From Shigella phage ESh3, in the sequence record ON528717: a stretch of 39,180 bases of DNA; one strand, given 5' to 3'. The notes under the pieces are model-generated. The model saw only the letters and a list, made by a program, of their open reading frames with translations. It ran no database searches and was not told the DNA's origin. A program made the position numbers and the translations under genes. Below, one piece after another: positions 14,371 through 17,491 of this stretch. Each line of letters begins with the position of its first letter. Position 1 is the first letter of the stretch.

Positions 14371-14670
14371 ATGGCTATGACAAAGAAATTTAAAGTGTCC
14401 TTCGACGTTACCGCCAAGATGTCGTCTGACGTTCAGGCAATCTTGGAGAAAGATATGCTGCATTTGTGCAAGCAGGTAGGCTCAGGTGCGATTGTTCCCA
14501 ATGGCAAACAGAAGGAAATGATTGTCCAGTTCCTGACACATGGTATGGAAGGCCTGATGACATTCGTAGTACGGACAGCATTTCGTGAGGCCATCAAGGA
14601 CATGCACGAAGAGTATTCCGATAAGGATTCTTTCAAACTCTCTCCCGCGACTGTACGGGAGGTGTTCTAA
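14371..14670 (+). CDS. 5.5: gene 5.5 (in T7, H-NS-binding protein)
   Basis: 99 aa MAMTKKFKVSFDVTAKMSSDVQAILEKDMLHLCKQVGSGAIVPNGKQKEMIVQF... Confidence 0.9.
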   Translation: MAMTKKFKVSFDVTAKMSSDVQAILEKDMLHLCKQVGSGAIVPNGKQKEMIVQFLTHGMEGLMTFVVRTAFREAIKDMHEEYSDKDSFKLSPATVREVF

Positions 14671-14786
14671 TGACTATCCGACGTATCAAGAATAAAAAGG
14701 AGTGCGACCACTCTTTCATAGTCAAGGGGGTCGTTGGTTTTTGCTGCCGAGAGTGTATCAAATGCGGATATTTTGAGGTGATGTGA
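14670..14786 (+). CDS. 38-codon Cys-rich micro-ORF (candidate zinc-ribbon peptide), coupled between 5.5 and 5.7
   Basis: MTIRRIKNKKECDHSFIVKGVVGFCCRECIKCGYFEVM; ATG overlaps 5.5 stop (TAATG) and its stop overlaps 5.7 start (TGATG). Confidence 0.5.
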   Translation: MTIRRIKNKKECDHSFIVKGVVGFCCRECIKCGYFEVM

Positions 14787-14995
14787 TGAGTGAATATCTT
14801 AAAGTGCTGCAAGCAATCAAAAGTTGCCCTAAGACTTTCCAGTCCAACTATGTACGGAACAATGCGAGCCTCGTAGCTGAGGCCGCTTCCCGTGGCCACA
14901 TCTCATGTCTGACTACGAGTGGACGTAACGGTGGCGCTTGGGAAATCACTGCTTCCGGTACTCGCTTTCTGAAACGAATGGGAGGGTGTGTCTGA
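14786..14995 (+). CDS. 5.7: gene 5.7 (in T7, inhibitor of sigmaS-RNA polymerase)
   Basis: 69 aa MSEYLKVLQAIKSCPKTFQSNYVRNNASLVAEAASRGHISCLTTSGRNGGAWEITASGTRFLKRMGGCV. Confidence 0.85.
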   Translation: MSEYLKVLQAIKSCPKTFQSNYVRNNASLVAEAASRGHISCLTTSGRNGGAWEITASGTRFLKRMGGCV

Positions 14996-15153
14996 TGATA
15001 CGTGACACTGTAACAATTCCTCGTGATGCGTGGAACGATATGCAGGGCTACATCGACTCTCTGGAGCGTGAGAACGATAGCCTTAAGAATCAACTGATGG
15101 AAGCTGACGAATACGTAGCGGAACTAGAGGAGAAACTTAATGGCACTTCTTGA
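14995..15153 (+). CDS. 5.9: gene 5.9 RecBCD nuclease inhibitor
   Basis: 52 aa MIRDTVTIPRDAWNDMQGYIDSLERENDSLKNQLMEADEYVAELEEKLNGTS; start overlaps 5.7 stop (TGATG). Confidence 0.85.
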   Translation: MIRDTVTIPRDAWNDMQGYIDSLERENDSLKNQLMEADEYVAELEEKLNGTS

Positions 15154-16042
15154 CCTTAAACAATTCTACGAGTTACGTGAAGGCTGTGACGACAAGGGTA
15201 TCCTAGTGATGGACGGTGACTGGCTTGTCTTCCAAGCGATGAGTGCTGCTGAGTTTGATGCCTCATGGGAGGAAGAGATTTGGCACCGCTGCTGTGACCA
15301 CGCTAAGGCCCGTCAGATTCTTGAGGATTCCATTAAGTCCTATGAGACCCGTAAGAAGGCTTGGGTAGGTGCTCCGATTGTCCTTGCGTTCACCGATAGT
15401 GTTAACTGGCGTAAAGAACTGGTGGACCCGAACTACAAGGCTAACCGTAAGGCCACTAAGAAACCTGTAGGTTACTTTGAGTTCCTTGATGCTCTCTTTG
15501 AGCGAGAAGAGTTCTACTGCATCCGTGAGCCTATGCTTGAGGGTGATGACGTTATGGGAGTAATTGCTTCCAATCCGTCTGCCTTTGGTGCTCGTAAGGC
15601 GGTAATCATCTCGTGTGATAAGGACTTTAAGACCATCCCTAACTGTGACTTCCTGTGGTGTACCACTGGTAACATCCTAACTCAGACCGAAGAGTCCGCT
15701 GACTGGTGGCACCTCTTCCAGACCATCAAGGGTGACATCACCGATGGGTACTCTGGGATTGCTGGGTGGGGTGATACTGCTGAGGACTTCTTGAATAACC
15801 CGTTCATAACCGAGCCTAAAACGTCTGTGCTTAAGTCTGGGAAGAACAAAGGCCAAGAGGTTACAAAGTGGGTTAAACGTGCTCCTGAGCCTCATGAGAC
15901 GCTCTGGGACTGCATTAAGTCCATCGGTGCGAAGGCTGGTATGACCGAAGAGGATGTTATCAAGCAGGGTCAGATGGCTCGCATCCTGCGGTTCAACGAG
16001 TACAACTTTATTGACAAGGAGATTTACCTATGGAGACCTTAG
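15140..16042 (+). CDS. 6: gene 6 5'-3' exonuclease
   Basis: 300 aa MALLDLKQFYELREGCDDKGILVMDGDWLVFQAM... Confidence 0.95.
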   Translation: MALLDLKQFYELREGCDDKGILVMDGDWLVFQAMSAAEFDASWEEEIWHRCCDHAKARQILEDSIKSYETRKKAWVGAPIVLAFTDSVNWRKELVDPNYKANRKATKKPVGYFEFLDALFEREEFYCIREPMLEGDDVMGVIASNPSAFGARKAVIISCDKDFKTIPNCDFLWCTTGNILTQTEESADWWHLFQTIKGDITDGYSGIAGWGDTAEDFLNNPFITEPKTSVLKSGKNKGQEVTKWVKRAPEPHETLWDCIKSIGAKAGMTEEDVIKQGQMARILRFNEYNFIDKEIYLWRP

Positions 16043-16240: not shown

Positions 16241-16495
16241 ATGTTAACACCTATTAACCATTTACTTAAGAACCCTAACGATATTCCAGATGTACCTCGT
16301 GCAACCGCTGAGTATCTACAGGTTCGATTCAATTATGCGTACCTCGAAGCGTCTGGTCATATAGGACTTATGCGTGCTAATGGCTGTAGTGAAGCCCACA
16401 TCTTGGGTTTCATTCAGGGCCTACAGTATGCCTCTAACGTCATTGACGAGATTGAGCTACGCAAGGAACAACTAAGAGATGATGGGGAGGATTGA
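16241..16495 (+). CDS. 6.5: gene 6.5, unknown function
   Basis: 84-aa [33 protein letters not shown]... Confidence 0.8.
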
Positions 16496-16499
16496 CCTT

Positions 16500-16766
16500 A
16501 TGTGTTTCTCACCGAAAGTTAAAGTTCCGAAGATGGATACCAATCAGATTCGAGCCGTTGAGCCAGCGCCCCTGACCCAAGAAGTGTCAAGCGTAGAGTT
16601 CGGTGGGTCTTCTGATGAGACGGATACCGAAGGCACCGAAGTGTCTGGACGCAAAGACCTCAAGGTCGAACGCGATGATTCCGTAGCGAAGTCTAAAGCC
16701 AACGGCACTGGCTCCGCTCGTATGAAGTCTTCAATCCGTAAGTCTGCATTTGGAGGCAAGAAGTGA
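16500..16766 (+). CDS. 6.7: gene 6.7, small virion/ejected protein
   Basis: 88 aa MCFSPKVKVPKMDTNQIRAVEPAPLTQEVSSVEFGGSSDETD...; track ORF begins earlier at 16479. Confidence 0.8.
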   Translation: MCFSPKVKVPKMDTNQIRAVEPAPLTQEVSSVEFGGSSDETDTEGTEVSGRKDLKVERDDSVAKSKANGTGSARMKSSIRKSAFGGKK

Positions 16767-17167
16767 TGTCTGAGTTCACATGTGTGGAAGCTGAGAGTCG
16801 CTTCCGTGCAATCCGGTGGACTGTGGAACACCTTGGGTTGCCTAAGGGATTTGAAGGACACTTTGTGGGCTACAGCCTCTACGTAGACGAAGTGATGGAC
16901 ATGTCTGGTTGCCGTGAAGAGTACATTCTTGACTCTACAGGAAAACATGTAGCGTACTTCGCGTGGTGCGTAAGCTGTGACATTCACCATAAGGGAGACA
17001 TTCTGGACGTTACGTCCGTTGTTATTAATCCTGAGGCAGACTCTAAGGGCTTACAGCGATTCATGGCGAAACGCTTTAAGAACCTTGCAGAACTCCATGA
17101 TTGCAATTGGGTGTCCCGCTGTAAACATGAAGGCGAGACAATGCGTGTATACTTTAAGGAGGTATAA
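16766..17167 (+). CDS. 7: gene 7, virion protein
   Basis: 133 aa MSEFTCVEAESRFRAIRWTVEHLGLPKGFEGHF...; ATG overlaps 6.7 stop. Confidence 0.85.
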   Translation: MSEFTCVEAESRFRAIRWTVEHLGLPKGFEGHFVGYSLYVDEVMDMSGCREEYILDSTGKHVAYFAWCVSCDIHHKGDILDVTSVVINPEADSKGLQRFMAKRFKNLAELHDCNWVSRCKHEGETMRVYFKEV

Positions 17168-17170
17168 GTT

Positions 17171-17491
17171 ATGGGTAAGAAAATCAAGAAGGCCGTGAAG
17201 AAAGTCACCAAGCCAATTACGAAAGCCGTGAAGAAAGTTACCAAGGAAGTGGCCCGTCCGGTTAAACAGGTTGCTGGTGCGCTGGCTGGTGGAGCTGGTG
17301 AAGCACAGGTAGTGGAAGTACCACAACCAACGGCTGCTGCAACCCCTGCTGCACAGATTGTGGACGTACCTGAGAAAGAGGTTTCCACTGAGGACGAAGC
17401 ACAGACAGAAAGCGGACGCCGAAAAGCTCGTGCTGGTGGTAAGAAGTCCTTGAGTGTAGCCCGTAGCTCCGGTGGCGGCATCAATATTTAA
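17171..17491 (+). CDS. 7.3: gene 7.3, tail assembly / ejected protein
   Basis: 106 aa MGKKIKKAVKKVTKPITKAVKKVTKEVARPVKQVAG..., Lys-rich repeats. Confidence 0.85.
   Translation: MGKKIKKAVKKVTKPITKAVKKVTKEVARPVKQVAGALAGGAGEAQVVEVPQPTAAATPAAQIVDVPEKEVSTEDEAQTESGRRKARAGGKKSLSVARSSGGGINI

Follow-up and report, generated by a model that had tools for sequence, protein, structure and literature searches.

A 38-codon gene translationally coupled to genes 5.5 and 5.7 of Shigella phage ESh3 encodes a putative accessory zinc-ribbon microprotein

T7-like phages transcribe only the plus strand of their genomes, homing-endonuclease cassettes populate their gene junctions, and phages commonly encode small accessory proteins of the zinc-ribbon type. 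In T7, gene 5.5 (16851..17150) and gene 5.7 (17150..17359) abut, as stated in the original prediction, a reading made from the DNA letters alone. The T7 protein Gp5.7 binds RNA polymerase and displays a winged helix-turn-helix fold, and a frameshift fusion of 5.5 and 5.7 in T7 was reported not to be expressed (PMC5569994). Here we analyze the corresponding junction of Shigella phage ESh3, described in PMC9686686 as a 39,180-bp phage of the genus Teseptimavirus (accession ON528717); the window is this whole stretch of 39,180 nucleotides (nt). In ESh3, a 38-codon open reading frame (ORF), hereafter the micro-gene, lies between genes 5.5 and 5.7. On balance, the comparative analyses and structural models favor the explanation that it is a genuine Teseptimavirus gene whose product would be an accessory, shuffled, basic zinc-ribbon microprotein binding a host or phage macromolecule.

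The micro-gene and the signals at its two ends are arranged as follows:

14670..14786, plus strand: micro-gene, 38 codons plus stop (ATG at 14670-14672, TGA at 14784-14786).
14670..14785, plus strand: extra 116-bp segment relative to T7 and Shigella phage ESh1, delimited by alignment and by the annotated T7 and ESh1 junctions.
14657..14663, plus strand: Shine-Dalgarno element GGGAGGT, 6 nt 5' of the micro-gene ATG.
14775..14779, plus strand: GAGGT within codons E36-V37, the Shine-Dalgarno of gene 5.7, with a 6-nt spacer to the ATG at 14786.

The start, the stop and the product of 38 amino acids (aa), MTIRRIKNKKECDHSFIVKGVVGFCCRECIKCGYFEVM, were recovered from the sequence and the ORF list exactly as first quoted; the computed properties of the protein are ~4.5 kDa, an isoelectric point (pI) of ~9 and a net charge of ~+3.5. 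In the pentamer TAATG, the TAA of gene 5.5 (14668-14670) and the ATG of the micro-gene have one A in common, and in TGATG the TGA of the micro-gene and the ATG of gene 5.7 likewise share one A (14786). These overlaps had been proposed as signs of translational coupling on both sides, and both the coordinates and the coupling arrangement were borne out. The alignment of thirteen 5.5-5.7 regions revealed that the insertion is a clean 116-bp indel, the exact edges of which are ambiguous inside the repeated junction motif GAGGTG-N4-TRATG. The T7 and ESh1 junction reads GGGAGGTGTTCTGATG, with gene 5.7 immediately after, and the GGGAGGT element aligned with it serves gene 5.7 in both phages; the order in ESh3 is GGGAGGTGTTCTAATG, the micro-gene, GAGGTGATGTGATG, and gene 5.7.

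An ORF at the same position was identified by tblastn in 10 Studiervirinae records, corresponding to phage EFA-2 (95% amino acid identity), seven Teetrevirus phages with 71-76% identity (Keithsmous, 066044, F5M1C, SH2 in two records, phage 31, mtp1 and mtp14) and Kayfunavirus TM1; many metagenomic contigs also harbor an ORF at the 5.5/5.7 junction. Loss of the frame in relatives bearing the insert had been named as the observation that would speak against coding; instead, the frame is intact in every such relative (eight other Studiervirinae phages) except the TM1 lineage. By the Nei-Gojobori method, the ratio of non-synonymous to synonymous substitution rates (dN/dS) is 0.05 between ESh3 and EFA-2 (8.5 synonymous and 2.5 non-synonymous differences) and 0.06-0.16 between Teseptimavirus and Teetrevirus copies, with values of 0.07-0.11 for gene 5.7 in the same pairs, an outcome which favors coding. 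The variable alignment columns are distributed over codon positions 1, 2 and 3 as 10, 8 and 23. The purely synonymous variation among contigs encoding an identical peptide was not used as evidence, since those contigs were chosen by peptide identity and the argument would be circular.

ORF length by itself leaves chance possible, because the probability of an open frame this long is (61/64)^37, ~0.17; chance is excluded because of the frame conservation, the low dN/dS, the third-position excess and the presence of homologues in unrelated phages. Taken together, these sequence comparisons indicate that the micro-gene is almost certainly a real, selected coding gene. The same variable sites bear on a second candidate, namely that the real feature is an antisense ORF of 88 aa (14633..14899, minus strand) spanning the whole insert. 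Although reverse frame 0 is free of stops in 10 of 10 Studiervirinae copies, the sites of variation cluster at the third plus-strand codon position, which is the first antisense position, T7 and ESh1 display no counterpart ORF, and transcription in T7-like phages is confined to the plus strand. The probability of an antisense gene is thus practically negligible, and the antisense ORF is, judging from these patterns, a by-product of plus-strand codon usage.

With regard to the protein, M1, C12, H14, G20, E28, C29, C32 and V37 are invariant in 21 full-length homologues, and F16, K19, R27, K31 and G33 nearly so. The conserved four-ligand signature is CxH-x14-CxxC (C12, H14, C29 and C32). The 17 sequences in the 90%-identity cluster of the ESh3 peptide vary in the N-terminal tail and the hairpin, but at none of the ligand positions. 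A zinc pattern C-x-H...CC-x2-C-x2-C had been proposed from the ESh3 sequence; it is present in the ESh3 copy and its four ligands are conserved, but the CC pair is variable across the family, C25 being replaced by Ala in Teetrevirus and by Phe, Tyr or Leu in myoviruses, and C26 by Val in myoviruses. The corresponding elements in ESh3 are:

14703..14711, plus strand: putative first metal knuckle, codons C12-D13-H14, with C and H invariant in all full-length homologues.
14715..14756, plus strand: predicted beta-hairpin between the knuckles (AlphaFold), residues 16-21 and 24-29, with F16, K19, G20, R27 and E28 conserved.
14754..14765, plus strand: putative second metal knuckle, codons C29-I30-K31-C32, both Cys invariant with the exception of the singleton P0037.

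AlphaFold2 models built with the family alignment reached a predicted local distance difference test score (pLDDT) of 70 for the ESh3 protein, with strands at 16-21, 24-29 and 35-37, whereas the model of a Certrevirus homologue scored 69 and placed its strands at 15-20, 23-28 and 34-38. Both models share the same layout, in which the hairpin separates the two knuckles and the third strand comes last; it corresponds with modest confidence to a zinc-ribbon topology. Many of the best-ranked Foldseek matches in the PDB, all non-significant, were zinc ribbons or small zinc fingers (eIF2beta 1k81, Rpb9, ZifS 8yoz and HVO_0758 8q5b); no significant structural or sequence match to solved zinc ribbons was obtained, and the PDB sequence search returned noise only (GTP cyclohydrolase I and L32 at E > 1). 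Scans against Pfam, PHROGs, NCBIfam and PADLOC assigned no family, the best matches (E 0.003-0.2) falling well short of curated cut-offs and differing from one member to the next. From the ligand signature and the models, the product is probably a metal-binding zinc ribbon.

The 38-aa zinc-ribbon ribosomal protein bL36 (or bL32) provides a conceivable model for a phage mimic, given the equal length, the basic N-terminus and some superficial likeness, along with the weak bL32 match in the PDB (E 1.6). However, when the family profile was compared by hhalign with a hand-entered E. coli L36 sequence, the probability was 4.7% and the aligned segment was out of register, and no Pfam ribosomal family matched. 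The mimic is therefore effectively refuted at the sequence level by the hhalign result, and we consider it extremely unlikely.

Beyond Studiervirinae, tblastn retrieved homologues with 42-49% identity (E 5e-5 to 6e-3) in ~25 records of Vequintavirinae myoviruses, most of those retrieved being Certrevirus, such as CR3, CR8, CR9, PBES 02, phiTE, POP15/17/18, SSBI34 and the vB_ExiM phages. Five genomic contexts were recognized among these loci and the contigs of the clusters from a profile search of 5.8 billion proteins, each given as upstream gene, micro-gene and downstream gene:

Context 1, Studiervirinae: gene 5.5, micro-gene, gene 5.7.
Context 2, Certrevirus: gene for a 113-aa protein, micro-gene, gene for a 71-aa or 104-aa protein.
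Context 3, podovirus with a different gene order: gene for a 134/136-aa protein, micro-gene, Endonuclease VII gene.
Context 4: gene for a DUF3310 protein, micro-gene encoding 30 aa, DNA ligase gene.
Context 5, large phage: gene for a 117-119-aa protein, micro-gene, gene for a 166-aa protein followed by a DNA methylase gene, or the methylase gene directly.

In nearly all cases the start of the micro-gene overlaps or abuts the upstream stop. The upstream neighbors show no relatedness to each other by BLASTP across all five contexts, and none of the proteins flanking the micro-gene in the other contexts is related to Gp5.5, Gp5.7 or Gp5.9 by the same method. A conserved two- or three-gene module, in which for example the Certrevirus neighbors would be akin to Gp5.5 or Gp5.7, was considered and rejected, as no BLASTP similarity was found upstream or downstream.

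All carriers with a credible host assignment infect Enterobacterales. EFA-2 is deposited as 'Enterococcus phage EFA-2' (MT350293.1), and its genome is that of a T7-like Studiervirinae phage ~90-96% identical to ESh3 over gene 5 to gene 6; its Enterococcus faecalis host label is doubtful. The sole non-phage member found is P0018 (L032/L033, 4001-4234), a 77-aa protein whose C-terminal half constitutes the CxH...CxxC domain (E 9.6e-6 against 1.8 billion sequences); its gene is located just upstream of a ParA-like ATPase gene, on a conjugative element with topoisomerase III, DUF3846, MobC and relaxase. Other proteins retrieved in the exhaustive profile search of 1.8 billion representatives (P0015-P0017 and P0019-P0021) are Cys-rich repeat or eukaryote-like zinc-finger proteins, and were treated as compositional matches. 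Among them, P0015, a metagenomic, membrane-anchored protein of 353 aa, harbors CEHEYVTKYDxTNHWxECSKCG repeats with the CxH-x14-CxxC spacing of the micro-protein (summed E 2e-9 over 5 stretches), and could represent either a distant domain relative or a convergent Cys/His repeat.

Every podovirus copy ends in E-V-(M/L)-stop, encoded as GAGGT-N6-ATG, with the stop overlapping the downstream ATG, which belongs to gene 5.7, Endonuclease VII or DNA ligase; thus, the micro-gene supplies both a Shine-Dalgarno and a stop/start overlap to the next gene. Myovirus copies keep E-V encoded with GAAGT, which is not Shine-Dalgarno-like, and this argues that E-V is selected at the protein level and that the codon choice in podoviruses represents a second use. 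The junction motif recurs on both sides of the insert as an imperfect direct repeat (GAGGTGTTCTAATG and GAGGTGATGTGATG), which would permit gain or loss via recombination between coupling junctions. Such built-in coupling signals are neat, not surprising.

The closest match to ESh3 in the phage collection over the first 25 kb is ESh1 (96.3% identity; T7, ~92%), which lacks the micro-gene despite this identity. Gene 5.5 of ESh1 (L022, 1316-1612) is only 67% identical to ESh3 14371-14667, the ESh1 region being mosaic, and this divergence implies that alleles of gene 5.5 have been exchanged by recombination independently of the micro-gene. In locus L025, the micro-gene is 88% identical and gene 5.5 only 72%, so different 5.5 alleles are found beside the micro-gene. 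According to the SH2 paper, gp5.5 and gp5.7 of SH2 are 99-100% identical to their phiYeO3-12 counterparts; SH2 harbors the micro-gene, and no phiYeO3-12 record was present among the tblastn matches. Among Teseptimavirus carriers, the divergence of the micro-gene (~90% identity) resembles that of its flanks, suggesting a resident of the sublineage rather than a very recent arrival. From these distributions, we conclude that the micro-gene is very probably accessory and horizontally shuffled.

Patchy occurrence at gene junctions in many phages would also be displayed by a part or remnant of a selfish mobile element, such as a piece of a degenerate homing-endonuclease cassette, and HNH genes are indeed found nearby in SH2, TM1 and L025. 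Nonetheless, ESh3 harbors neither gene 5.3 nor any HNH gene, and the linkage to endonucleases is inconsistent; moreover, family scans detected no HNH, GIY-YIG or LAGLIDADG similarity, 38 aa are too few for a nuclease, and the purifying selection equals that on gene 5.7 in strength. An origin of this kind is very improbable.

The one departure from the intact frame was found in Escherichia phage TM1 (L004, 1501-1620) and in the metagenomic copy P0014. Both have lost 1 nt after codon 24 and gained 1 nt near the end, which compensates for the loss; unrelated residues stand in place of the CxxC half, yet the ORF keeps its length and its overlap with the start of gene 5.7. A sequencing error is unlikely, because the change was seen in two independent sequences; TM1 and P0014 represent a decayed copy retaining only the coupling function. 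It is here that a translated spacer has to be weighed, that is, a frame kept open solely so that ribosomes leaving gene 5.5 pass on to gene 5.7, its peptide being functionless. The frameshifted ORFs and the gene 5.7 Shine-Dalgarno carried by the 3' end of the micro-gene agree with this possibility, yet they have to be set against the dN/dS values of 0.05-0.15, the invariance of the C/H/C/C and other residues in phages with unrelated neighbors, and the direct, spacer-free coupling of 5.5 and 5.7 in T7 and ESh1. A mere spacer is, consequently, highly unlikely.

The genes surrounding the micro-gene in ESh3 comprise:

14371..14670, plus strand: gene 5.5, 99 aa, H-NS-binding protein family; 92.6% nucleotide identity with T7 gene 5.5.
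14786..14995, plus strand: gene 5.7, 69 aa, RNA-polymerase-binding protein family; 94.7% identity with T7 gene 5.7.
14995..15153, plus strand: gene 5.9, 52 aa, RecBCD inhibitor family, next in the chain of start/stop overlaps; PF25708 is present on its homologues.
15140..16042: gene 6, which extends the overlap chain after gene 5.9.

The domain PF11247 (Phage_T7_55) is present on the gene 5.5 homologues accompanying metagenomic copies; the micro-gene product itself matches neither PF11247 (Gp5.5) nor PF25708 (Gp5.9). Scans around the insert detected no RNA element of Rfam on the plus strand, and no plus-strand site resembling a promoter or a terminator. Upstream, the end of gene 5 (14351) is followed by the start of gene 5.5 (14371), without the HNH-like gene 5.3 that T7 has between these two genes (16483..16839). 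Gene 5.3 is likewise missing from ESh1 and EFA-2, whereas SH2 and TM1 carry an HNH gene at this place. The micro-gene had been regarded as embedded in the 5.5-5.7-5.9 host-interference operon and, while this is its location in ESh3, it is not specific to this block, since the same gene occurs at four other kinds of junctions; its position beside 5.5-5.7-5.9 is therefore weak evidence on function.

Regarding its mode of action, the micro-gene would be transcribed together with the class II genes, and ribosomes ending gene 5.5 would restart at the overlapping ATG, aided by GGGAGGT; the last codons, GAG GTG ATG TGA, would recreate a Shine-Dalgarno and a stop/start overlap, so that gene 5.7 would still be coupled. 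The product would be a basic, 4.5-kDa stand-alone zinc ribbon holding one metal ion by C12, H14, C29 and C32, with a beta-hairpin between two knuckles followed by a third strand. Because it comprises ~27 structured residues without a catalytic apparatus, it would act by binding and not enzymatically. The gene would constitute a self-contained 116-bp cassette, recombined into several coupled junctions of virulent enterobacterial phages and easily lost, and the protein would bind stoichiometrically a macromolecule common to infections of Enterobacterales. This target may be a host protein or nucleic acid, in the context of takeover or counter-defense, or, with lower likelihood, a component of phage DNA metabolism. 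A host target ranks as the most likely because the gene is accessory and patchily distributed and because the neighboring T7 proteins set a precedent, and by this analogy we tentatively consider the micro-protein a possible binder of a host target serving takeover or counter-defense. Core replication seems not to require the micro-gene.

A role in phage DNA metabolism, by binding to DNA or RNA or to a phage replication, recombination or modification enzyme, is the main alternative. In other phages, Endonuclease VII or DNA ligase directly follows the gene, or a DNA methylase follows at a distance of one to two genes, and in ESh3 its place is in the block of DNA-metabolism genes that runs from polymerase to exonuclease; in addition, the protein is basic (pI ~9) with conserved K19, R27 and K31, and the 77-aa homologue P0018 is encoded just upstream of ParA. 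On the other hand, the neighbors vary in every context, which implies no single partner, close relatives replicate without the micro-gene, and no similarity to known nucleic-acid-binding ribbons reaches significance. We thus consider this role possible but somewhat unlikely.

Several observations weigh against the accessory, macromolecule-binding zinc ribbon that we favor. The family is rare: a profile search of 5.8 billion proteins, with a 40-aa homologue as first sequence, retrieved only 14 clusters, IMG/VR yielded 4 loci only, and no member was found in 185,579 species-representative genomes (GTDB). Furthermore, PLSDB plasmids contained no family member detectable by tblastn. In the TM1 lineage, the ORF may matter more for coupling than for its peptide. 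Finally, no homology to characterized, host-interference or anti-defense proteins was found, and for this reason what the protein would bind, and whether it acts on host or phage, is purely conjectural.

A bolder formulation holds that the micro-gene is a portable, self-coupling 116-bp unit hopping between coupled junctions by microhomology (GAGGT-N6-ATG) and encoding a zinc-ribbon inhibitor of a conserved enterobacterial target, which could be, for example, a component of anti-phage defense or a nucleoid or transcription factor. We judge this formulation unlikely; if true, it would reveal a new family of host-range or counter-defense microproteins common to T7-like podoviruses, Certrevirus myoviruses and a conjugative element. 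Returning to the favored accessory binder, if its target is a host defense or takeover factor, a new small inhibitor would be added to the T7 class II repertoire, and the spread of a micro-gene between phages via translational-coupling junctions would be demonstrated; otherwise, it would represent another uncharacterized small accessory gene. Carriers of the ESh3 type and the non-carriers ESh1 and T7 offer a natural, isogenic-like contrast.

The exact peptide is deposited as URY10716.1, 'hypothetical protein [Shigella phage ESh3]', and is encoded on 15 contigs, with the 5.5, micro-gene, 5.7 arrangement in 6 of the 6 shown. No annotation of the micro-gene exists in EFA-2, SH2, CR8, phiTE, SSBI34 and F2M1E; six others list it as a hypothetical protein. 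The record of Pectobacterium phage PcCB7V (UTC25295.1, P0002) labels a 39-aa Certrevirus homologue as 'DNA-directed RNA polymerase subunit', presumably due to a weak zinc-ribbon (Rpb9-like) resemblance; no significant similarity backs this name. Literature searches for 'gp5.6' or 'gene 5.6' with phage retrieved no paper mentioning either, and neither the SH2 paper nor the passages naming ESh3 in PMC9686686 refer to the micro-gene. The ORF is, hence, already known as a hypothetical protein, the family itself being uncurated and without discussion in the literature found. Genes of 30-40 codons are routinely missed, and the micro-gene provides a well-supported case in which a phage microprotein is under selection and bears a clear metal-binding signature.

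Compared with known systems, the micro-protein shares with the zinc ribbons of eIF2beta (C-terminal, 1k81) and Rpb9/TFIIS (C-terminal) two short knuckles with a hairpin between them and a third strand, as well as four conserved ligands and ~30 structured residues; it differs in that its first knuckle is CxH instead of CxxC, and in being stand-alone rather than a domain of a larger protein. Haloferax HVO_0758 (8q5b) and Thermus ZifS (8yoz), both among the Foldseek matches, are likewise very small stand-alone proteins, but they are cellular and without sequence homology, whereas the micro-protein family is confined to virulent phages plus the one conjugative-element homologue. With T7 Gp2, Gp5.5, Gp5.7 and Gp5.9 it has in common the operon, the size class, the coupled expression and a presumed stoichiometric binding; unlike these proteins, it is absent from T7, it shows no homology to any of the four, and they are not zinc ribbons. 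HNH homing endonucleases, such as those resembling the T7 gene 5.3 product, are typically >100 aa, in contrast with the 38 aa of the micro-protein, which lacks an HNH family match. Lastly, the micro-gene resembles phage morons and accessory cassettes in its presence or absence between near-identical genomes and in its different sites in unrelated phages. Classical morons carry their own promoter and terminator, whereas the micro-gene has neither on the coding strand and instead provides the next gene with a Shine-Dalgarno and a stop/start overlap.

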